From an uncultured bacterium (GTDB taxonomy: Bacteria; Planctomycetota; UBA1135; UBA2386), in NCBI GenBank assembly GCA_937952215.1, contig CALFZH010000008.1, forward strand, positions 34,661 through 98,660: 64,000 nucleotides of DNA, written 5' to 3'. The notes beneath the pieces were generated by a model. It saw nothing but the letters and a program-made list of their open reading frames with translations. It did not search any database and had not been told where the DNA came from. Positions 1-11,088 of the stretch are shown piece by piece. The translations under genes and the position numbers were made by a program. How positions within the stretch are numbered: position 1 is the stretch's first letter; every line of letters begins with the position of its first letter.

Positions 1-1556
1 TCGACGGCGACGCATCTTCGATCGAGCGCGACGTCCCGGTCGCTGACCTGCGGCCCGGCGATCGCGTGCGGGTTCGCCCAGGCGAGCGCGTGCCGAGCGA
101 TGGCGTCGTGCAGCACGGTAGTTCTGCCGTGGACGAATCGCTGCTCAGTGGCGAGAGCATGCCAGTGGAGAAGGGGCTCGGCGACCGCGTCGTTGGCGGC
201 AGCATGAACACGTCCGGTGCGCTGCTCGTTCGCGTCGAGCACGCGGGTGCGGAGACCGCGCTGGCGCGGATCACCGCCGCGGTCGAACTGGCCCAGGGAT
301 CGCGGGCACCAATCGCTCGGTTCGCTGATCGAGCCAGTGCGGTGTTCGTTCCGATCGTCCTGGTGCTGGCGCTGGTGACGTTCGGCCTCTGGTGGTCGAT
401 CGACCCGACCTGGGGCGGGCTGCCGGTGGCGATCGAGTACATGGTGGCGGTGCTCGTGATCGCTTGCCCGTGTGCGCTCGGCCTTGCGACGCCTGCGGCC
501 GTTGCCGTCGGTGCTGGACGCGGTGCGGAACTCGGGGTCATGTTTCGAACCGGCGCGGCGATCGAACAGGCAAGCCACATCGACACCGTGCTGTTCGACA
601 AGACCGGCACGCTGACGACCGGCCGTCCTGATGTGGTTGCCGTCGAGCCGCGCCCCGGCATCGCGAGCGAGGAACTCCTGCGCCTTGCCGCGGCGGTCGA
701 GTTGTCGAGTGAGCATCCGTTTGCCCGTGCGGTCGTCGGTGCGGTGCAGGCGCGTGGGCTCGCGCTCGACGTAGCAACGCAGTTCGTCTCTGTTCCAGCC
801 ATGGGGGTGATGGCGCGTGTGGGCGGCTTCACCGTTCGCGTCGGCAAGCCCGAGTGGCTCGCCCAGCAAGGCATCGACGTCGCGGCGGTTGCTCCGCGCG
901 TCGCGGCGCTGGCGTCAGGTGGGGTCACGCCGCTTCTCGTGGCGCGAGATCGCGACCTACTGGGGGTGATCGGCCTCGCCGATGCGCTGCGGCCCGAGGC
1001 ACGGGCGGCCGTGAAGCATCTGCGCGCGATGGGGATCCGTCTCGGGATCCTGTCGGGAGACAAGCAGGGCGTCGTCGCTGCGATTGCGCAGCAAGTCGGT
1101 ATCGACGAGATCGCTGCGGAGCTGCTACCTAACGACAAGACCCGACGGATCGCCGAAACGAAGGATGGAGGGCAGCGCGTCGCGATGGTCGGCGATGGCG
1201 TCAATGACGCCCCGGCACTGGCGACCGCCGACCTGGGGATCGCAGTCGGCACCGGCACCGACGTTGCTGCGGCAGCCTCGGACGTCGCGCTACTGCGAGG
1301 TGGGCTCGCGGGCGTGCCTGTAGCCATCGCCTTGGCCCGAGCAACCATGCGCACGATTCGGCGCAACCTGCTGTGGGCGTCGGTCTACAACCTGCTCGGC
1401 CTGCCGATCGCGGCCGGCGCGTTCGCGGGACTGGGCATCGTCTTGTCGCCGGTGTACGCCAGTGCCGCCATGTCGCTGTCCAGTGTGTCTGTCCTGTTGA
1501 GTTCCCTCATGCTGCGGCGTTTCCGCAGCGCGAGCGGAGCGGAGATCGTGCGGTGA
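1..1556 (+). CDS. Heavy-metal-translocating P1B-type ATPase, C-terminal ~518 aa (5' end lies outside the window)
   Basis: Reading frame is open from nt 3. Motifs present: [11 protein letters not shown] (TGES), [12 protein letters not shown] (CPC metal site), [10 protein letters not shown] (phosphorylation site), [10 protein letters not shown] (hinge). Stop is TGA at 1554-1556. Confidence 0.93.
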
Positions 1557-1606
1557 GCTGCCACGGAGAGCGTGAGGGCGACGCCGCGGGACTACCGGAC
1601 CGCGTG

Positions 1607-2143
1607 ATGCACGAACTCGTTGCTGGCCACCGCGATTTCGTCGCGTTCGTGGAACGGCGCGTCGGCGACCGCACCATAGCCGAGGACGTCGTGCAGGACG
1701 CTTTCGTGAAAGGTCTGGAACGCGGCGGCGAACTGCGTGCCGACGAGTCGTCGCGCGCGTGGTTCTACCGCGTGCTGCGCAACGCGATCATCGACCGGCA
1801 CCGGCGATCAACGACTGCCGGCGCTCGGCTTCAGGCACTAGTCGACGAACTGCAGCGCGCCGAGTCGCAGCGGGCTGCCGAAGCCGATCGCGAGCTATGT
1901 AGCTGCATCGGCCGGCTGATCGACACCCTGCCGCCCGATCAGGCCACGGCCTTGCGTCGCATCGAGCTGGACGGTGTCGCGGTCAAGGACTTCGCTGTCG
2001 AAGCAGGGCTCGGAGAGAGCAACGCGGGGGTGCGCGTGTTCAGGGCGCGCAAGGCGCTGCGCGAGCAAGTGACGAGGGCTTGCGGAACGTGTGCGGAACA
2101 CGGTTGCTTCGACTGTTCGTGCCGCAAGCCACAGGCTGGCTAG
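1607..2143 (+). CDS. ECF sigma-70 factor with Cys-rich C-terminal extension (CorE-like / ECF44-like)
   Basis: Sigma2 region (DVVQDAFVKGLE..., WFYRVLRNAIIDRHRR) and sigma4 region (ALRRIELDGVAVKDFAVEAGLGESNAGVRVFRARKALR). A CSC motif sits in the linker (ELCSCIGRL). The C-terminus is CGTCAEHGCFDCSC. ATG at 1607; an alternative GTG at 1553 overlaps the ATPase stop (GTGA). No anti-sigma gene is adjacent. Confidence 0.85.
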   Translation: MHELVAGHRDFVAFVERRVGDRTIAEDVVQDAFVKGLERGGELRADESSRAWFYRVLRNAIIDRHRRSTTAGARLQALVDELQRAESQRAAEADRELCSCIGRLIDTLPPDQATALRRIELDGVAVKDFAVEAGLGESNAGVRVFRARKALREQVTRACGTCAEHGCFDCSCRKPQAG

Positions 2144-2211
2144 CCAAGGTGCAATGCCGCACCGCCGCGATCCGGTCGCGCTGCCCCGGCTGAGGCAGGG
2201 CGACGCAGAAC

Positions 2212-2502
2212 CTACTTCTTCTGCGCGGGCTGCCCGCCTGCCGCCATGCCTTCCAGCACCTTGTCGACGTTCGTCGTCGCAGGATCGTAGTGGACGGTGA
2301 TCTCGGCGTTGCCCGCCGTGATCTCGGCCCCCTTCACACCCGGCAGCTTCTCCAGCGTGGCACGCACGCCGGCAACGCAGCCGCCTCAAGTGGGCTTCTT
2401 GTCGAGGACCAACATGGCGTCCTTCGTCTCGATTGACACCGGATTGGTCGCGCAACCCGCGAGGGCGATCGCGGCCAGCAACACCGGGGATGCGAACCTC
2501 AT
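2212..2502 (-). CDS. HMA-domain lipoprotein with in-frame TGA at the first Cys position of the CxxC motif (candidate selenoprotein, 96 aa)
   Basis: My translation: MRFASPVLLAAIALAGCATNPVSIETKDAMLVLDKKPT-[TGA 2388..2386]-GGCVAGVRATLEKLPGVKGAEITAGNAEITVHYDPATTNVDKVLEGMAAGGQPAQKK-stop. Lipobox is LAGC. The ATG overlaps the stop of the upstream paralog (ATGA). The frame stays open and HMA-like after the TGA. Confidence 0.6.
2354..2370 (-). promoter_or_regulatory. Candidate bSECIS-like hairpin downstream of the in-frame UGA
   Basis: RNA is GGCGUG-CGUGC-CACGCU, a 6-bp stem (one G.U pair) with a 5-nt loop containing GU. It starts 15 nt after the UGA. The hairpin is short and the genome is 70% GC, so this is weak evidence on its own. 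Confidence 0.35.
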
Positions 2503-2822
2503 GCCTTCACCTTCGCGCCGGACTCACCGGCAGCGACCAGCTTCGCGACCATGTCGGCCGGTTTGATCTTGGCGGCGTCGTAGTGGACGGTGAAGTCCTT
2601 GTCGCCGGCCTTGATGTCGATCTGGCTGATGCCGTCGACCTTCCCAAGGGCACCGCGCACGGCGGTGACACATCCCCCTCAAACGGTCTTGCCCAACTCC
2701 AGCTTGACCTGCGACACGGTCGCGGCAGCACCCGGCGTCGGGTTGTTCGGAGCAGTTGGCTCCGGCTTGCTGCAGGCGACCAGGAACAGCGCACAGACGC
2801 TCGCGGCGAACAGTCGGTTCAT
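2499..2822 (-). CDS. HMA-domain lipoprotein with in-frame TGA at the first Cys position of the CxxC motif (candidate selenoprotein, 107 aa)
   Basis: My translation: MNRLFAASVCALFLVACSKPEPTAPNNPTPGAAATVSQVKLELGKTV-[TGA 2681..2679]-GGCVTAVRGALGKVDGISQIDIKAGDKDFTVHYDAAKIKPADMVAKLVAAGESGAKVKA-stop. Lipobox is LVAC. A GAGGA RBS lies about 10 nt upstream of the ATG at 2822. Confidence 0.6.
2651..2667 (-). promoter_or_regulatory. Candidate bSECIS-like hairpin downstream of the in-frame UGA
   Basis: RNA is CACCGC-CGUGC-GCGGUG, a perfect 6-bp stem with a 5-nt loop CGUGC (the same loop sequence as the paralog). It starts 11 nt after the UGA. Confidence 0.35.
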
Positions 2823-2997
2823 GATCTCATTTCCTCGATGACAACCCCGCGAAAGTTCGCGGTGGGCGAGAATCCTAGGCTGCACTTGGTATCGCACCAG
2901 GGGAAGGCGCAGGTGCCGCCTGTGGTGCAGCTCGGAGTGTCGCGCCGTTCTCACCTTCGCGGCCCTACGATGCCGGGCCGCTCTTCAGCCCGTCAGG

Positions 2998-3879
2998 ATG
3001 ACCATGCGAGTCGCACTCCAGATGCTCTGTTCCCTCTGCTTCGCCTTGTGCTTGCCGGCGCAGCAGCCCGACCGGAAGCCGGTTGGTGTGGTGCTCGGCG
3101 AGGCAGGCTCGGTGCTGCCCGACGGCAGCTTCCGCATCGACCTGCCGCGCAAGGAGTCGGTCCTGCGCAACAAGTTCGGTTTCGTGGTCCCGCCGTCCAT
3201 GGTGCTGACCTACGCGGCGTTCGCGGGCACGCCTGAGCGCGCGATCGTGGTGGGCGACACCTGCATGTTGCCCGTGGAGGTCAACCCGGTGCTCGACGAG
3301 CTGAGGAAGGGCAACCTGGAGATCGTCGCGATCCACAACCACATGCTGGGCGGCAGCCCCAACTTCATCTTCCTGCACTTCCAGGGCTCGGGTGCGGCGA
3401 TGGACATGGCCAAGGCGATCCGCGCCGCGTGGGATCAGATGGGCAAGCAACCCGCGGCGGCAGCACCGGCGGCGGCGACCCCGCCTACGCCCGACTGGAA
3501 GGCGGTGTCCGACGCCGTCGGCCTGCCGGGCGCGATGCAGAAGGACGGCATGTTCAAGATCGCGTTGCCGCGCCCGCAGTTGGAGACCAGCATCGATGGG
3601 CAGCGGCTTCCCGCGGGCGTCGGGCTCGCCTGCTGGGTTGGTTTTGCGCCTTGCGAGTGCGGGCGAACGATGGTCATGGGCGACACCTGCCTGCTCCGGA
3701 GCGAGTTGCAGCAGGCCATCGATGCCTACCGCAAGCACGGCATTCGCATCGTCGCGATCCACAACCACATGCTCGGAACGAGTCCCGAGCTGATCTTCTG
3801 CCACTTCACGGCGGAAGGGGACGCGATGGAGCTGGCGCGGGCCATCAAGGTGGTGTGGTCGCCGCTGCGAGCGAAGTAG
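2998..3879 (+). CDS. Secreted tandem-repeat protein, LppY/LpqO-like (DUF1259-type)
   Basis: N-terminal signal peptide. There are two internal repeats, each with GDTC(M/L)L...E(V/L)...IVAIHNHMLG(G/T)SP..IF.HF.(G/E)GDAM..A.AI...W. Family assignment is from memory of the HNHM / F.HF motifs. Confidence 0.7.
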   Translation: MTMRVALQMLCSLCFALCLPAQQPDRKPVGVVLGEAGSVLPDGSFRIDLPRKESVLRNKFGFVVPPSMVLTYAAFAGTPERAIVVGDTCMLPVEVNPVLDELRKGNLEIVAIHNHMLGGSPNFIFLHFQGSGAAMDMAKAIRAAWDQMGKQPAAAAPAAATPPTPDWKAVSDAVGLPGAMQKDGMFKIALPRPQLETSIDGQRLPAGVGLACWVGFAPCECGRTMVMGDTCLLRSELQQAIDAYRKHGIRIVAIHNHMLGTSPELIFCHFTAEGDAMELARAIKVVWSPLRAK

Positions 3880-3968
3880 GCGCGCCCTGTCGAGGGCGAC
3901 CGAGTTCGTGCGCCTCGGTGTCGTGGCCTCCTACGGGGGCTGGGAACGCGGCTCGGATCCCTGCGCGT

Positions 3969-3985
3969 GACGTTGAGTCAACGTC
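3969..3985. repeat. Perfect 8-1-8 palindrome GACGTTGA-G-TCAACGTC
   Basis: Seen directly in the non-coding stretch between the DUF1259 gene and the tRNA fragment. Confidence 0.6.
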
Positions 3986-4198
3986 GGTGGCACCGAGCCC
4001 CTGCGCGCTCCTCGGTCACTTGGTAGGACTGCCAAGTTAAGGCGTTGACTACCACGAACCGGCGGAACGAGGCGCGATCCAGCGCGACGCCTTGCGACTC
4101 CCGCCGCCCGCTCGTAACCTTCGGCCTGTTCTCGGATTCGCGCACCAATCCGTTCCTTTTCCAGCCGCTCCGCAGGATGCGGGCGGGAGGGCCAGGAA

Positions 4199-4246
4199 TG
4201 CATGGGGTGCAGGGGGTCGGAAGTTCAAATCTTCTCGCTCCGACCA
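4199..4246 (+). other. tRNA-Pro(GGG)-like 3' fragment (anticodon loop to CCA end), lacking the 5' half; probable att-site remnant
   Basis: Sequence is TGC-ATGGGGT-GCA GGGGTC GGAAG-TTCAAAT-CTTCT CGCTCCG-A-CCA. It contains an anticodon loop with GGG, a variable loop, a T-arm, the acceptor 3' strand and an encoded CCA. The terminal ...CCG-A-CCA implies the C1-G72 pair typical of bacterial tRNA-Pro. I found no matching CGGAGCG 5' acceptor strand or D-arm upstream. Confidence 0.6.
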
Positions 4247-4317
4247 TCTTTGACTTCTGCCGCAAGGCGTCTCGCGGCGGCCGCCCGGAGTGCTCGCGCG
4301 GCACCGGTAGCTCGCAG

Positions 4318-4337
4318 TTTGACAGTCGACTGTCAAA
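4318..4337. repeat. Perfect 20-bp palindrome TTTGACAGTCGACTGTCAAA
   Basis: Seen directly. It lies about 60 bp upstream of the integrase-fragment ORF. It could be an operator or recombination-directionality site; function is unknown. Confidence 0.6.
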
Positions 4338-4398
4338 GTGAGCGGGCAGCCATGAAGAGGTTGAACGACGCGCACGCGAACCGCAGCGGTTCGATGCG

Positions 4399-4635
4399 GT
4401 GCCATGCGACGGCATGGCAACCACCGAGAGCGAGCGAAAGGAACGTCGTCGGGCGAAGCCCCCGAAGATGGGGCGACACAGCAGCGGGCAGGCCAGGGTG
4501 ACCCTCGGCGGCAAGGTCCTCCACCTGGGCCTCAGGGGATCCGCCGAGGCACACGAAAACTACGCGCGACTAGACTCGAGCCGCGCTGCTGCCGAAGCGA
4601 AGGTCGCTCGAATCCGCGCCAGCGACTTCGCGTAG
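4399..4635 (+). pseudogene. Tyrosine-integrase N-terminal fragment (relic)
   Basis: KPPKMGRHSSGQARVTLGGKVLHLGLRGSAEAHENYARL matches the conserved N-terminal arm-binding segment of many phage-type integrases (SGQarVtlnGk..yLG.yGS.es...Y.rl). The ORF stops after 78 aa and no catalytic domain follows in any frame. Confidence 0.55.
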
Positions 4636-4927
4636 ATCGCGCGGCGCGCTACGCGGCCGACGGTGCTGGCATCGGCGATGCGCAGCCGTAGGTGCCAAGC
4701 AGCAGACAAGAGCAGGGGGAACGCCGGCGGCGGCGGGCCGCACATAGGCAACTCACGAAGTCGCAGATTGCTGATGAGGGCCTTTGCAGGCTGGCTTGGT
4801 GCACCGGCGCGCCGATCGGTGGCACCGGCCGCGAGAATTCGCGCGCGATCGGCCTCAGACCGCTGCGCGGACCCAAGCCGACGGGGTCGGCAGCCGGCGC
4901 CGCAGTCGCTAGCCTGCCCGCTCCCCG

Positions 4928-5398
4928 ATGATCGCGCTCACCGGCATCAGCAAGCGACACCGCCACCAGGTCCTGTTCGTCGACGCCTCGCTGCAGCTCG
5001 ACCCCGGCGAGAAGGTCGGCCTGACCGGCCCCAGCGGTGCCGGCAAGTCGACCGTGTTCCGCCTGATGACAGGCGAGGAGAAGTCCGACGAAGGCGACGT
5101 GCAGATGCCCGAACGCCTGACCATCGGCTGCTTCCGCCAGGATATGCGTGAGTTATCCTGCCGCTCGGTGCTCGACGAGGCGATTGCCGGCAGCGGCAAG
5201 GTCGGTGCCTTGCTCCACGAGCTCGAGCAGCTGCAGCACGACATGTCGGACCCCGACAAGGCCGACGACAGCGGATGGTCGCCCGGCGCGGACCTCGCAG
5301 TTCGCGGCACGGCACCGCGTCTCGACGACATCGAGACGGCCGACGATCTGTTCGGCAACCAGCGCGACGGCGTGCTGAAGGTCGCGATCGCGCCGTGA
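4928..5398 (+). pseudogene. ABC-F ATPase N-terminal fragment (truncated)
   Basis: MIALTGISKRHRHQVLFVDASLQLDPGEKVGLTGPSGAGKSTVFRLMTGEE... is an ABC-F type first NBD with a Walker A motif. Similarity is lost after about 110 aa. There is no LSGG signature or Walker B, and the ORF is 156 aa versus more than 500 aa expected. Confidence 0.6.
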
Positions 5399-8124
5399 GC
5401 GACGCGCGACGCGGAGCCGACCGGAACGGGCGCTGGCATGCCATCGACGGTCGCCTTGCGATCGAGGCCGTCGGCTCGGATGCGGTAGCCGGACTGTCGG
5501 CGTCCGAAGCGCACCAGCGCCTGCTGCGCGGCGGGCCCAACGCCCTGCCGGAGCCGCATCGTCGCTCGCTGTTGTCGGTGTTCGCAGCACAGTTCCGGAG
5601 CCCGCTGATCTACCTGCTCCTCGCCGCTGCAGGCCTGGCACTGGCGCTCGGACACACGCAGGACGCCGCGGTGATCTTCGTCGTGCTGCTGGCGAACGCC
5701 GTCATCGGCGCCGTGCAGGAGGGCCGCGCCGAGCGTTCGCTGGCGGCGCTGCGCAAGCTGGAGACGCTGAAGGCGCGCGTCGTCCGCGACGGCGAAGAGC
5801 AGGTGGTCGCGGCGCGCGAGGTCGTGCCGGGGGACATCCTCGTGGTCGAGGCCGGCGATGCGATCGCCGCCGATGCGCGGCTCCTGGATGGCGTCGCCTT
5901 GCAGCTCGCCGAGGCCGCCTTGACCGGAGAGTCGGTGCCGGTCGGCAAGCACCTGCTGCCCGTCGCTCCGAACACGCCGTTGGCAGACCGCAAGAACATG
6001 ATCTACGCGGGCACGCACGTGACGGCCGGACGTGCGCGCGCCGTCGTCGTCGCGACCGGGCTCGAGACCGAGATCGGACGCATTGCGACCCTGGCGGAGC
6101 AGGCGGTCGAACCGAAGACGCCGCTCGAACTCCGCATCGCGTGGTTCGGCCGTGCCGTCATGGTGGCCGCGCTCGTCATGTTCGCACTGGTGCTCTGGAT
6201 CGGCGCGCTCGGCGGCATCCCGTTCGGCGAGATCCTGATGGTCGGCATCAGCCAGGTCGTCAGCATGGTGCCCGAAGGGCTGCCGGTCGCGATGACCGTC
6301 GTACTTGCGGTCGGCGTCCAGCGCATGGCCAAGCGCAAGGCGGTCGTTCGGCGCCTCGCCGCGGTCGAGACGCTTGGCTCGACGACCGTGATCTGCACCG
6401 ACAAGACCGGCACGCTGACGAAGAACGAAATGACCGCCACGGCGGTGCACCTGCCGGACGGCTGCGACCTCGCGGTGACCGGCGCCGGCTACGAGCCGGT
6501 GGGCCGCTTCCAGGCGGGGGGGCGCGAGTTCGACCCGGCGCAGCACGCCGGGTTGCGAGAACTCCTGGACGCAGTGGCGTTGTGCAACGACGCGCAGCTG
6601 CGCGGCCCGGAGCCGAACGGCGGTGGTCGCTGGCAAGCCGTCGGGGACCCGACCGAGGTGGCGCTGTTGTCGCTGGCCATCAAGGGCGGCGTCGTGCCGA
6701 GCGAGCTTCGGCGTCGATGCCCCCGGCGAGCCGAGCTGCCGTTCGATCCACAGGCGCGCATGATGGCGACGCAGCACGACACCAGGGCGGGATCGCGCGT
6801 CTACCTGAAGGGCGCGCCCGAGGTCGTGTTCGCGCTCACCAGCGGCGGCTCGGTGCCAGCGCTCGCCGAGGCAGTCGACAAGATGGCGGCGCGGGCGCTG
6901 CGGGTACTGGCGGTGGGCGTCGTCGACGATGCGACGATCGACGGCAGCAGCGGCATTGGCGCTCTTGCCGGCCGCGTGCGGATGCTCGGCCTCGTCGGAC
7001 AGATCGACCCGCCGCGGGCCGAAGTCGAGGCCGCCGTCGCGCAGTGCCGCGACGCTGGCATCCGGCCCGTCATGGTGACCGGTGACCACCGGCGCACCGC
7101 GCATACGATCGCCCGGGCACTCGGCATCGCTCGAGACGGCGACACCGTCGTCGACGGCGTCGAGCTCGAGAGCATGAGCGACGACGAGCTGGCGGCGCGC
7201 ATCGACGCGGTCGCCGTCTTCGCGCGCGTGCATCCGGCGCAGAAGCTGCGCATCGTCGACGCGTTCCAGCGACGCAACCACGTCGTGGCGATGACCGGCG
7301 ACGGCGTCAACGATGCGCCGGCGCTGGTCAAGGCCGACGTTGGCGTCGCGATGGGCTTGACTGGCACCGAGGTCGCCAAACAGGCCGCCAAGGTGGTCAT
7401 CACCGACGACAACTTCGCGACCATCGTCGCCGCCGTGGAGGAGGGGCGGGTCATCTACGGCAACCTCAAGAAGCTGATCCTCTACCTGTTCACGACGTCG
7501 ATCGCCGAGGTCGTGGTCCTCCTGTCGGCACTGCTGCTGGGCTACGCGCCGCCGCTGTTGGCGGTGCAGATCCTGTGGATCAACCTCGTCACCGACGGCA
7601 TGTTGACCATCACGCTGATCATGGAGCCCGCCGAGGGCGACGAGATGCAGCGGCGACCGGTGCCGCGCCAAGAGTCGATCCTGAGCCGGTCGATGCTGGT
7701 GCGCGTCGCGTTCATGGTCCTGGCGATGGCGGTTGCGACGCTGGGCTGGTTCGTCTGGCGGCAGGCGCAAGGCGTGCCGTTCCCGCAGGTCCAGACCGAG
7801 ACGTTCACGCTGCTCGCGGTCTGCCAGTGGTTCAATGTGCTCAGCTGTCGCTCGCAGCGGCGCTCGGCGCTGACCATGAGCCTGCTGCGCAACCCGTGGT
7901 TGATCGGCGGCTTGGTGCTCGGCAACCTGCTGCAGGCGGCCGTAATATTCTTCCGCCCGCTCGGCGACGTGTTCCACACGGTGCCGATCGGCTTCTGGAC
8001 CTTCTTCGCCATCGGCGCCGTGGCCAGTCTGCCGCTCTGGGTCGAGGAGCTGCGCAAGCTCGTGGCGCGCCGCTGGTTCACGGTTCAGGACGAGCGGCCT
8101 CGTCGCGCTCGGATCATTGAGTGA
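5395..8124 (+). CDS. Cation-transporting P-type ATPase, type II (Ca2+/Mg2+/Na+-like)
   Basis: A GTG start at 5395 overlaps the previous stop (GTGA). N-terminal region reads WHAIDG...GLSASEAHQRLLRGGPNALPEP. Motifs: [43 protein letters not shown]. There are 10 predicted TM segments. Confidence 0.93.
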   Translation: MSDARRGADRNGRWHAIDGRLAIEAVGSDAVAGLSASEAHQRLLRGGPNALPEPHRRSLLSVFAAQFRSPLIYLLLAAAGLALALGHTQDAAVIFVVLLANAVIGAVQEGRAERSLAALRKLETLKARVVRDGEEQVVAAREVVPGDILVVEAGDAIAADARLLDGVALQLAEAALTGESVPVGKHLLPVAPNTPLADRKNMIYAGTHVTAGRARAVVVATGLETEIGRIATLAEQAVEPKTPLELRIAWFGRAVMVAALVMFALVLWIGALGGIPFGEILMVGISQVVSMVPEGLPVAMTVVLAVGVQRMAKRKAVVRRLAAVETLGSTTVICTDKTGTLTKNEMTATAVHLPDGCDLAVTGAGYEPVGRFQAGGREFDPAQHAGLRELLDAVALCNDAQLRGPEPNGGGRWQAVGDPTEVALLSLAIKGGVVPSELRRRCPRRAELPFDPQARMMATQHDTRAGSRVYLKGAPEVVFALTSGGSVPALAEAVDKMAARALRVLAVGVVDDATIDGSSGIGALAGRVRMLGLVGQIDPPRAEVEAAVAQCRDAGIRPVMVTGDHRRTAHTIARALGIARDGDTVVDGVELESMSDDELAARIDAVAVFARVHPAQKLRIVDAFQRRNHVVAMTGDGVNDAPALVKADVGVAMGLTGTEVAKQAAKVVITDDNFATIVAAVEEGRVIYGNLKKLILYLFTTSIAEVVVLLSALLLGYAPPLLAVQILWINLVTDGMLTITLIMEPAEGDEMQRRPVPRQESILSRSMLVRVAFMVLAMAVATLGWFVWRQAQGVPFPQVQTETFTLLAVCQWFNVLSCRSQRRSALTMSLLRNPWLIGGLVLGNLLQAAVIFFRPLGDVFHTVPIGFWTFFAIGAVASLPLWVEELRKLVARRWFTVQDERPRRARIIE

Positions 8125-8883: not shown

Positions 8884-10551
8884 TCAGGCGAATCGTCTGC
8901 CGATCCGGTAGGCGCTCTGCGCGTACTGCTCGAGCATGCGCTGCGTGTTGAAGAACGACCCGTTGAGGGCGATCGCGTAGCGCATGATCGGCACGTACGA
9001 CTCCGGGGCACCGGCGAACCTCGCCGCGATCGCCTCGAGCTTGTCGTAGAGCTGCGCCGCCTCACCGAGATCCGATCCGGGCTCCCAACTGTCGCCGATC
9101 GACCATCCGGTGACGCCCTCGACGTGCCCTTCGATCCACCAGCCGTCGAGCACGCTCAGGGACGGCACGCCATTGAGCGCGGCCTTCATGCCGCTGGTGC
9201 CCGATGCTTCCTCCGGCTTCTTCGGGGTGTTGACCCAGAGGTCGACGCCGGCGCAGAGCAGGCGTGCCAGGTCCATGTCGTGGCCCTCGAGATAGACGAT
9301 CTCGACGTCGCCCCGCAACCGTTCGGCTGCCTCGAACAGGCCACGGATCACCGCCAGCCCGGCACTGTCGCGCGGATGTGCCTTGCCTGCGTAGACGATC
9401 TGGACCGACTTGCCGAGCCGGCGCAGCCGCTCCGGGTCCGCGAGCAACAGGCCGGCGCGCTTGTACGGTGTCGCCCGGCGCGCGAAGCCCAACGGTATCT
9501 TCTCCATCGACAGGCGTCGGCCGGTGCGCTTCTCGATCTCGGCGATCAACTCGGCCTTGCACCGGGCATGCGCCGCAAGCAGTTCGGGGCCGGGAATGCT
9601 CACCGCATAGCGGAGGTTGTCGTTCTGCTGCCGCCAATCCGGGATGTGCCGGTCGTAGACCTCGCGAAACGCTGGCGCCGTCCAGGTCGCCGCATGCACA
9701 CCATTGGTGATCGACGTGATCGGGTAGCCGGGGTACATGCCGCGCGAGATCTGGCCGTGGCGCATGGCCACACCGTTGACATACCGCGAGAAGAACAGCG
9801 CCATGTGCGTGAGGTTGAGCACGCCATCGAGGCAGCAACCGATGTTGGTGAGGCGGTCGGCACGCGCTTGCCCCAGCACCTCCCGGGCCAGCCCGATCGG
9901 AAACTGGTCGTGACCCGCGGGCACGGGCGTGTGCGTGGTGAAGACGCAGCGATCCCGCACCCGTTCGATCGCCTCGGGCCCAGCACCGTCTTCGTGCTCC
10001 AGCAGAGCCAGTGCCAGGAGCGCCGAGTGCCCTTCGTTCAGGTGGTACACACGGATGTCCTCATGCCCGAGCGCGCGCAACATCGCCACCCCGCCGCAGC
10101 CGAGCACGGTCTCCTGCGCGAGGCGATAGCGCTCGTCGCCACCGTAGAGTCGATCCGTGATGGAGCGTTGCCACGGCGTGTTCTCGTCCAGGCACGTGTC
10201 GAGCAGGTAGACGGGCACCTCGCCGCCCGACCCGCCGTGTACTCGGTACTGCCAGGTGCGCACGGCCACGGCCTGGCCTTCGACGGTCACGGTGATGCGC
10301 GCCGGCAGATCCTGCAACGACGCCTCGGGAGTCCACGGGTCCGGGCTGCCGTGCTGCATGCCGTTCGCATCGAGCTGCTGTTTCAGGTAGCCGAGTCGGT
10401 GCACGAGGGTCACGGCCACCAACGGCAGCCCGAGGTCGGCGGCCGCGCGCAAGGTGTCGCCTGCGAGCACACCGAGTCCACCTGCGTAGGTCGGAATGGC
10501 GGACTCGAGGGCGACCTCCATGGAGAAGTACGCGATGCGGGCAGTGGACAT
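8884..10551 (-). CDS. glgP: Alpha-glucan phosphorylase (GT35, TIGR02094-type)
   Basis: MSTARIAYFSMEVALESAIPTYAGGLGVLAGDTLRAAADLGLPLVAVTLVHRLGYLKQ... and TSGMKAALNGVPSLSVLDGWW. The start was moved to the internal ATG at 10551. Confidence 0.9.
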   Translation of the reverse strand: MSTARIAYFSMEVALESAIPTYAGGLGVLAGDTLRAAADLGLPLVAVTLVHRLGYLKQQLDANGMQHGSPDPWTPEASLQDLPARITVTVEGQAVAVRTWQYRVHGGSGGEVPVYLLDTCLDENTPWQRSITDRLYGGDERYRLAQETVLGCGGVAMLRALGHEDIRVYHLNEGHSALLALALLEHEDGAGPEAIERVRDRCVFTTHTPVPAGHDQFPIGLAREVLGQARADRLTNIGCCLDGVLNLTHMALFFSRYVNGVAMRHGQISRGMYPGYPITSITNGVHAATWTAPAFREVYDRHIPDWRQQNDNLRYAVSIPGPELLAAHARCKAELIAEIEKRTGRRLSMEKIPLGFARRATPYKRAGLLLADPERLRRLGKSVQIVYAGKAHPRDSAGLAVIRGLFEAAERLRGDVEIVYLEGHDMDLARLLCAGVDLWVNTPKKPEEASGTSGMKAALNGVPSLSVLDGWWIEGHVEGVTGWSIGDSWEPGSDLGEAAQLYDKLEAIAARFAGAPESYVPIMRYAIALNGSFFNTQRMLEQYAQSAYRIGRRFA

Positions 10552-11088
10552 GAACGGTCGGTGGAGGGGCGCGGGTGTCGTTCGCTCACGCGAGATGGTG
10601 GCTGCCGCCACCCGTCATTGGCATCACGCCGCGGGCACCGCGGCGCGAGCAGCTCGCAGCACGTCGGCCGAAGCCGAAAGGGCCCGGTGCGGGCGATGCC
10701 GCGTGCAGGATGGAGATCGCCACGCCTGCGGCTTGTGTGAACGACCTTGGTCCATGCTGGCGCCGACCCAACCCAAGCCGATGAGACCGATGCGCATGCG
10801 CGCATCCTGTCGAGCGCCGGCGGCGCGTCAACCAGGGAAAGGGCCAGGCCGCCGCGGCCCGTCGGTGGTCGAGCCCCGTTGGTCGGCACGCTGTCCACCT
10901 TCCCGAATCGACTGCGCGTCCTGGCCCGGAAACGACTCACAGGCCCTCGACACTGCCACCCCAGCCAGGAAGGAAGTGTCCGATGACGTAGCCGCGAGCC
11001 ATGCCGTCGTCAGCGGCGCGGTCCATGGCGGGCGAACGGAACAAGTGCGCGAGGGTTGACGCGACCCCGGCCGGACGCCGACCCTGTT

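Follow-up and report, generated by a model that had tools for sequence, protein, structure and literature searches.

The DNA considered here, referred to below as the window, is a stretch of 64,000 nucleotides from contig CALFZH010000008.1 (GenBank assembly GCA_937952215.1) of an uncultured member of the Planctomycetota. Near its start lie two adjacent minus-strand genes, each encoding a small lipoprotein with a heavy-metal-associated (HMA) domain and each interrupted by one in-frame TGA. Both genes very probably encode selenoproteins in which this UGA is decoded as selenocysteine (Sec), a reading proposed in an earlier note on this DNA and now strongly supported. The confidence expressed here covers Sec decoding only, and it rests on four independent lines drawn from sequence: the UGA is conserved, it is paired with cysteine in orthologues, the frame downstream of it is translated and under purifying selection, and the hairpin that follows it covaries. 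For a role of the two proteins in copper handling, the chances are about even.

Gene 1 (2499..2822, minus strand) has 107 codons and gene 2 (2212..2502, minus strand) has 96, and both carry the motif U-G-G-C in their HMA domain, with the TGA as residue 48 of gene 1 and residue 39 of gene 2. Gene 1 translates as MNRLFAASVCALFLVACSKPEPTAPNNPTPGAAATVSQVKLELGKTV, the TGA, then GGCVTAVRGALGKVDG and onwards to a C-terminal KVKA and a stop, while gene 2 reads MRFASPVLLAAIALAGCATNPVSIETKDAMLVLDKKPT, the TGA, then GGCVAGVRATLEKLPG and onwards to AQKK and a stop. The proposed Sec codons, at 2681-2679 in gene 1 (2679..2681, minus) and 2388-2386 in gene 2 (2386..2388, minus), are the single in-frame TGAs of their genes. 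An ATGA at 2502-2499 forms the overlap of gene 1 with gene 2, through which gene 2 is predicted to be translationally coupled to gene 1. The paralogues share 30-31% identity.

Both proteins begin with a signal peptide whose lipobox, read by inspection only and not with a dedicated predictor, satisfies the pattern [LVI][ASTVI][GAS]C. In each case the lipobox occupies residues 14-17, as L-V-A-C in gene 1 (2772..2783, minus strand) and L-A-G-C in gene 2 (2452..2463, minus strand), making the cysteine at residue 17 the predicted lipidation site. The gene 2 lipobox is conserved in orthologues, and the lipobox cysteine column is invariant across a 19-sequence alignment of the family. When cysteine is written at the TGA position, the Pfam HMA model (PF00403) scores gene 1 at 35.2 bits and gene 2 at 33.5 bits, above the gathering score of 24.8. 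Alignment to the HMA domains of ATP7B, Bacillus subtilis CopA, MerP and CopZ places the TGA of both genes on the first cysteine of M-T-C-x-x-C, a position that is cysteine in all HMA domains of known structure. The beta1 strand preceding the TGA is also aligned to solved HMA domains, so the domain spans the TGA; because the alignment covers both sides, neither half alone can make an HMA domain. The gene arrangement, the lipobox and HMA domain of each protein, and the replacement of the first CxxC cysteine by TGA had all been described in the earlier note, and each of these descriptions holds.

A word-based search for homologues with a single sequence returned only three proteins, each ending exactly at the gene 1 TGA. 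At the DNA level, a scan of one genome per species identified seven loci, all in Planctomycetota metagenome-assembled genomes (MAGs), and all seven have TGA at the aligned codon. Metagenomes supplied 10 further loci, again with TGA at the aligned codon in 10 of 10. Where these loci contain the second gene, it too carries the TGA, with protein identity down to 45-49%; three loci (L019, L020 and L022) have a single gene instead of a pair. Five further clusters of fragments at 50% identity were checked on DNA, and all five encode a lipoprotein signal peptide, TGA-x-x-C and an HMA domain. The two residues between the TGA and the cysteine vary (GG, KG, GA, TS, AG, MG, SA or TG), with the TGA and cysteine themselves fixed. 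The earlier note had argued that the TGA is no random nonsense mutation, and its retention at one column in both paralogues across all Sec-type loci examined bears this out.

Relatives with cysteine at the same column also exist, and it took exhaustive and profile searches to bring them out. When the part of gene 1 after the TGA was used in an exhaustive HMMER search, about 20 clusters (50% identity) of 52-54-residue fragments were retrieved. Their first residues are (M/V)RGAL, the start having been placed by gene callers at the GTG that lies six codons past the TGA. Also retrieved were full-length proteins, 99-150 residues long, that share the lipoprotein architecture and the C-terminal signature (…AAGEKGAKVKS) and have CxxC at the TGA column. 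Nine such Cys-type orthologues were placed in the alignment (P0067, P0069, P0074, P0075, P0079, P0081, P0087, P0137 and P0158), and a tenth (P0159) came from a profile search. This profile search, over 5.8 billion proteins, gave 49 matches at E <= 1e-5, and since about 40 of these are half-length fragments, Sec forms dominate the family. The correspondence between TGA and CxxC is classical Sec/Cys pairing. The fate of the aligned column in homologues, which the earlier note had named as a check on its reading, is therefore TGA in both paralogues down to 45% identity and CxxC in the Cys-type orthologues.

The fold was modelled with AlphaFold on one of these Cys-type orthologues, P0159, and not on the window proteins. 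The model has a mean predicted local distance difference test (pLDDT) score of 82, exceeding 90 across the domain, and a beta-alpha-beta-beta-alpha-beta topology (strands 38-43, 66-71 and 77-82; helices 50-60 and 89-98). The first ligand cysteine, C49, falls within the beta1-alpha1 loop, and the second, C52, within the first turn of alpha1. Its top matches in the PDB are HMA domains without exception, the best being CopP, MerP (1osd, 1afi), HMA7 and CopZ, with a target-normalised TM-score of about 0.8 and a root-mean-square deviation of about 2 Å.

Several other observations were made on the family and its loci. Eight proteins (P0098, P0108, P0112, P0115, P0122, P0134, P0142 and P0144) belong to a related HMA subfamily in which C-x-x-C-C replaces CxxC, the C-terminus carries a conserved (R/K)-(R/T)-W-V-(R/V) motif and a lipobox is not evident. 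The closest fused relative found by the family profile is P0198, a protein of 215 residues in which a MerT domain is fused to an HMA domain with an ordinary GMTCGGC. One MAG, CAZIFB01, carries two diverged copies of the whole module (L006 and L009). Locus L002 looks chimeric, having a gene 1 like that of L001 and a gene 2 whose 3' end is identical to the window, while in L011 (about 10340-10700) gene 2 is frameshifted beside a run of Ns, which is probably an assembly problem.

Substitution patterns downstream of the TGA indicate that the frame there is under purifying selection, that is, translated. Counts of non-synonymous (dN) and synonymous (dS) change were made by the Nei-Gojobori method on post-TGA codons only. 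For gene 2, the window compared with L001 gives dN 0.042 and dS 0.609, and compared with L017 dN 0.025 and dS 0.469; gene 1 compared with L017 gives dN 0.049 and dS 0.511. Six synonymous changes and no non-synonymous change separate gene 2 from its counterpart in L009, and dN/dS ranges from about 0 to 0.3 among close and mid-distance pairs. Together with Pfam and PDB alignments that span the UGA, these values agree with the earlier note's description of an open, coding frame after the TGA. They also bear on the simplest alternative, in which the TGAs are real stops and the genes are decayed or split, yielding lipopeptides of 47 and 38 residues and perhaps products of 53 and 51 residues from the internal GTG. 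Public gene calls do split each gene in this way, and the GTG six codons after each TGA offers a possible start. However, both paralogues keep the stop at one column down to about 45% identity and in dozens of assemblies, and the six codons from TGA to GTG are conserved in frame, including the invariant second cysteine. In addition, the HMA fold needs beta1 and the metal loop, which are located before and at the TGA, and dN/dS is far below 1. Genuine termination at these codons is thus highly improbable.

Two further explanations, a reassigned genetic code and an error in the DNA, can be addressed from the window and from independent assemblies. Among 24 window genes checked, only genes 1 and 2 contain internal stops. 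Because 17 of the 22 other genes, as well as gene 1 itself, normally end in TGA, a reassigned code is excluded. Misreading of TGC or TGT as TGA in sequencing or assembly has nothing in its favour beyond the general possibility of such errors, and its probability is negligible: with differing flanking substitutions, the same TGA recurs in both genes at more than 30 loci that come from independent projects and different assemblers (ENA, JGI, Logan, NCBI). The index of the assembly collection lists the exact N-terminal fragment of gene 1 in 94 blocks. Ten places, drawn from ENA, JGI, Logan and NCBI and including metagenomes of bioreactor sludge, were inspected. The complete set of four gene calls (47, 53, 38 and 51 residues) occurs in eight of them; in the other two (L034 and L043), the fourth call is absent or truncated where the fetched stretch ends. 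Since the split gene calls recur in at least ten independent assemblies, read error is ruled out. GenBank records of MAGs label the pieces 'hypothetical protein' (e.g. MBX3463611-13, MBK8098645/47 and MBL8738765-67) and IMG labels the fragments 'copper chaperone CopZ'. The family is currently unrecognised in public annotation, which splits the genes at the UGA.

A scan of the window and loci for in-frame TGAs flanked by cysteine also gave one other candidate, LPCVSS-U-C, conserved in L011 and L022. This candidate was rejected, as it lies in the antisense frame of a conserved plus-strand gene.

Each UGA is followed by a hairpin resembling a bacterial selenocysteine insertion sequence (SECIS). 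In gene 1 this is a 17-nucleotide (nt) element at 2651..2667 (minus strand), 11 nt after the UGA, with stem CACCGC/GCGGUG and loop CGUGC. The hairpin of gene 2 (2352..2372, minus strand) lies 13 nt after the UGA and has the same loop CGUGC on an 8-bp stem, CCGGCGUG/CACGCUGG, which is the inner helix of the minimum-free-energy structure. The earlier note had described 6-bp hairpins with a CGUGC loop after both TGAs; this is correct for gene 1 and for the loop and spacing of both, whereas the gene 2 stem is longer than it had stated. In Escherichia coli fdhF, the minimal SECIS is an upper stem-loop of 17 nt placed 11 nt from the UGA, and the G-U in its loop is needed for SelB binding. The gene 1 hairpin is alike in its length, in its distance from the UGA, in lying within coding sequence and in the G-U of its apical loop. 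It differs in that the loop is CGUGC and the stem has no bulged U, and SelB binding is putative here.

The hairpin's strongest support comes from covariation. Across 21 distinct Sec-type sequences in the gene 1 register, 99.2% of cells are paired over the six stem positions; covariation is also seen in a 16-sequence set. Compensatory changes, with both partners altered, occur at four of the six pairs, in 24 cells; these convert C-G to A-U or U-A, A-U to G-C or U-A, C-G to U-A, and G-C to A-U. None of 500 shuffles matches the observed pairing or covariation score, and sliding the 3' arm by 1-3 nt lowers pairing to 14-60%. The pairing does not simply follow from conservation of the protein, since several of the compensatory changes replace residues encoded by both arms (T to A along with G to S). 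The earlier note's placement of a hairpin at a distance like that of bacterial SECIS elements is well supported by these results.

Cys-type relatives serve as a natural control and support the hairpin's link to the UGA. In two of these, L032 and L033, whose helix start is similar (V-A-T-V-R-K and V-A-G-V-R-K), only two and one of the six pairs are formed, respectively, and the hairpin is lost. In a third, L031 (P0074, 1658-1957), the codon is TGT, one nucleotide from TGA, and the hairpin is intact with all six pairs. This locus looks like a very recent switch from Sec to Cys that left the hairpin behind.

Several results weigh against Sec decoding or are neutral. Within the close clade the gene 2 hairpin is invariant, and covariation lends no support to its register. 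In the window's clade, this hairpin departs from the family register by 3 nt, away from the UGA, while distant gene 2 orthologues (L012 and L021) adopt the register of gene 1. For the 62 nt that follow each UGA, folding energy does not improve on that of shuffled sequence (z = +0.73 and -0.29) and is ordinary for a sequence of 69% G+C. The support for the hairpin comes from covariation and not from stability. No Rfam SECIS match was found, either at gathering thresholds in the window and seven loci or at E <= 1 in 2100-5300. Finally, selA, selB, selD and tRNA-Sec were not found in the 64-kb window or the fetched loci. Searches with tblastn using E. coli SelA and SelD gave no match in the window and fetched loci, and Rfam detected no tRNA-Sec at gathering thresholds in the window and seven loci or at E <= 1 in 2100-5300. 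ARAGORN, run on the window and 13 loci, reported only a tRNA-Val in L010 and a 96-nt 'tRNA-Glu' in L022. The latter (5087-5182) was considered as a candidate tRNA-Sec, but it lies inside the coding sequence of a large unknown protein and is unseen by Rfam, and was set aside as a false positive. In favour of Sec decoding, full Sec machinery has been reported in several Planctomycetes, namely Gemmata, Isosphaera and two Porphyra-associated strains (PMC4807772).

These results leave some room for an explanation in which the UGA is read through without selenium, either by a near-cognate Trp, Cys or Arg tRNA or by programmed readthrough stimulated by the hairpin, placing an ordinary residue at the first ligand position. 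Such readthrough would account equally well for the conserved UGA, the translated downstream frame and the conserved hairpin, and it would fit with Sec machinery not being found in the window or fetched loci. Against this, the UGA falls exactly at the metal-ligand cysteine of homologues, which is the hallmark of Sec/Cys pairs, and a sense codon would be a simpler and more efficient way of obtaining Cys or Trp. The size, spacing and G-U loop of the hairpin match bacterial SECIS elements and not known readthrough signals. The Cys-type locus with TGT, moreover, keeps its hairpin, as predicted by a recent switch from Sec to Cys. Readthrough without selenium is consequently very unlikely, and Sec decoding remains the preferred reading.

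Sec at this position of an HMA domain has precedents. The closest in terms of position is a cation-transporting P-type ATPase selenoprotein with UxxC in its N-terminal HMA domain, e.g. ABB15669.1 of Carboxydothermus hydrogenoformans (PMC9312934, PMC13188914). The likeness lies in Sec as the first Cys of the HMA CxxC and in a context of heavy-metal transport. However, the HMA domain there is cytoplasmic and fused to the pump, whereas in the window it forms a stand-alone exported lipoprotein, present as a tandem pair, and the pump neighbouring that pair keeps an ordinary GMTCAAC site. A second precedent is the 'UxxU_metal_bind' (seleno)protein NF041115, formerly a 'putative mercuric reductase' (PMC13188914). 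This is likewise a small stand-alone HMA-type selenoprotein, and it is the best or second-best NCBIfam match of both window proteins. Nevertheless, the matches reach only 37.4 and 35.3 bits compared with a cut-off of 95, and the motif is UxxU there and UxxC with an invariant Cys here. The entry on NF041115 in a review table does not mention a lipoprotein signal peptide (PMC13188914). The MerT/CopZ fusion-like heavy-metal transport selenoprotein NF045683 also contains Sec and an HMA/CopZ-like module, but gene 1 matches it at 24.5 bits compared with a cut-off of 375, gene 2 does not match, and the MerT membrane domain is absent from the window proteins.

Among Cys-only relatives, MerP (TIGR02052) is similar: it is exported, consists of one HMA domain whose two ligands sit in the beta1-alpha1 loop, and ranks among the top fold matches. 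Unlike the window proteins, MerP has CxxC, a signal peptide that is cleaved and not lipidated, and a place in merTPA operons; the window proteins score 33.1 and 36.7 bits compared with a cut-off of 92.55, and there are no mer genes nearby. Chaperones of the CopZ/CopP/Atx1 type share the fold and ligand geometry, and the window pair, like them, has a link to copper transport in that it adjoins a copper ATPase. These chaperones are cytoplasmic and Cys-only, however, and all the NCBIfam CopZ models score far below their cut-offs here. The 'MerP selenoprotein' in the GOS (Global Ocean Sampling) data (Zhang and Gladyshev 2008) was considered as a prior description and dismissed, as it consists of 33-residue reads (…APAGTUCQSGVQAV…) with no UxxC and no resemblance to this family. 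A 2026 inventory of prokaryotic selenoproteins contains no HMA lipoprotein and does not mention PF00403, and full-text literature searches yielded no description of an HMA lipoprotein selenoprotein family. The earlier note's claim that this is an unusual use of selenium in envelope metal handling thus stands in part: the lipoprotein family is absent from the inventory, but Sec at the same HMA position is already catalogued. The family extends a rare, known kind of selenoprotein and introduces no new principle.

The neighbouring genes provide most of the clues to function, and the P1B ATPase, metal-sensing sigma factor and DUF1259 protein named in the earlier note all agree with Pfam and NCBIfam. 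The 3' part of a copper-type P1B ATPase gene, which runs off the window start, occupies 1..1556 on the plus strand (Pfam E1-E2_ATPase and Hydrolase; TIGR01511). It scores 483 bits with the copper-translocating model TIGR01511, compared with a cut-off of 397, and CPC, YN and MxxSS motifs are seen by inspection. These are motifs of Cu(I)/Ag(I) pumps. A full-length orthologue of the pump in related loci has an ordinary GMTCAAC N-terminal HMA domain, TGA being used only by the exported HMA proteins and not by the HMA domain of the ATPase.

The next gene (1553..2143, plus strand; Pfam Sigma70_r2 and r4_2), which is convergent with gene 2, encodes an extracytoplasmic function (ECF) sigma factor. Inspection shows a C-S-C motif in the linker between sigma2 and sigma4 and, at the C-terminus, a tail rich in Cys, CGTCAEHGCFDCSC. 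A CXC motif in this linker and a Cys-rich C-terminal extension are the signatures of CorE-like sigma factors (PMC8999054), and by both of these the window protein is classed, from its sequence, as CorE-like. The stop of the ATPase overlaps a possible GTG start of the sigma factor (GTGA, 1553-1556), which suggests that the pump and its presumed regulator may be co-translated. On the other side, divergent from gene 1, lies the DUF1259 gene (2998..3879, plus strand; two PF07485 repeats, Pfam E = 4e-63). Each repeat has an A-I-H-N-H-M-L motif that could bind metal. This gene is in pieces of 67 to 157 residues in several close assemblies (compared across L006, L013, L034, L037-L039, L041 and L043), in which the HMA pair is intact. 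A scan of 2050-3050 for sigma-70 promoters and intrinsic terminators found none.

The order DUF1259, HMA1, HMA2, sigma factor and ATPase is kept in the close clade. In L001, the pair is preceded by a MacB-type ATP-binding cassette (ABC) exporter and again adjoins a sigma factor and an ATPase. The copper role is weakened by the fact that neighbour synteny is limited to the close clade and that L011, L012 and L022 have no nearby ATPase. From gene context, the copper link is thus good in the window's clade, but it is weaker across the whole family, because distant members adjoin no ATPase. In these three most distant loci, a conserved acidic protein of 840-917 residues is encoded upstream of the Sec-HMA gene (L011 7400-9922, L012 7164-9917 and L022 3389-5926), on the same strand and ending about 80 nt before it. 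Neither Pfam nor NCBIfam gives a match to this protein, which is a possible functional partner of the Sec-HMA protein.

True selenoproteins with another role would also fit part of this evidence, for example a MerP-like scavenger of Hg(II) or of Ag, Cd or Pb, or an envelope selenol/thiol redox protein, in either case without a copper ATPase as partner. MerP is the best NCBIfam match of gene 2, at 36.7 bits, and is among the top structural matches, and known Sec-containing relatives are filed under mercury or heavy-metal transport. Distant members are not beside a copper ATPase, and CorE-like sigma factors can respond to Cd/Zn rather than Cu (PMC8999054). On the other hand, no merT, merA or merR was found among the neighbours of any member examined, and the MerP scores are far below the cut-off. 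The pair in the window's clade is, furthermore, syntenic with an ATPase that passes a copper-specific model and has Cu(I)-type transmembrane motifs. A role unconnected with the copper pump is accordingly unlikely, although it is the least improbable of the alternatives considered here.

If the UGAs are decoded as proposed, a working model of the system can be outlined. The internal UGA would be read as selenocysteine during translation, with the mRNA hairpin 11-13 nt downstream, in the coding sequence for the start of helix 1, recruiting SelB with Sec-tRNA(Sec). The precursor would then be exported, lipidated at Cys17 and tethered in the cell envelope, as its lipobox predicts. There, the selenolate-thiolate pair (Sec-x-x-Cys) may bind a soft metal ion, most likely Cu(I), and either buffer it or hand it on in concert with the adjacent copper-exporting P1B ATPase. 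Gene context also suggests that expression may be under the neighbouring CorE-like metal-responsive sigma factor. The advantage of Sec over Cys would lie in its lower pKa, in tighter and faster binding of soft metals, and in a site more readily maintained in reduced form within an oxidising compartment, as general Sec chemistry would lead one to expect. More tentatively, and with some doubt, the family may represent widespread envelope metallochaperones of Planctomycetota that use Sec-x-x-Cys as a metal ligand and not as a redox centre, to capture or relay Cu(I) or another soft metal outside the cytoplasm. Selenium-dependent copper tolerance in these wastewater and soil bacteria could follow from this, and the tandem pair could act as a two-step relay beside the exporting ATPase.

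In nearly all characterised selenoproteins, Sec serves redox catalysis, and the few cases of Sec as the ligand of a transported metal come from computation only. With its small, soluble and well-understood fold and its naturally occurring Sec and Cys forms, one of which has apparently just switched to Cys, this family is convenient for measuring the contribution of selenium to soft-metal binding in an oxidising compartment. A family model would also correct dozens of public records that split these genes into fragments named 'hypothetical protein' or 'CopZ'. The compact, conserved SECIS (UGA, 11 nt, 6 bp, CGUGC) can be used to search cleanly for members of the family, and possibly for further selenoproteins in Planctomycetota.

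The remainder of the window consists of typical Planctomycetota chromosomal genes, including DUF1800/DUF1501, glyQ, RNase PH and a Ser/Thr kinase. Beyond the DUF1259 gene, the plus-strand sequence GGTCGGAAGTTCAAATCTTCTCGCTCCGACCA at 4213-4247 resembles the T-arm and acceptor 3' end of a tRNA, with no full tRNA identified there by ARAGORN or Rfam, and an open reading frame (ORF) at 4399-4635 (plus strand) resembles, by eye only, the N-terminal part of an integrase. Together these may be the scar of an integrated element adjoining the metal module. Further downstream lies what is probably a truncated remnant, a 156-residue ORF (4928-5398, plus strand) that starts like an ABC ATPase, with the Walker A motif GPSGAGKST, and runs into the start of the gene for a P2-type cation ATPase (5275-8124).

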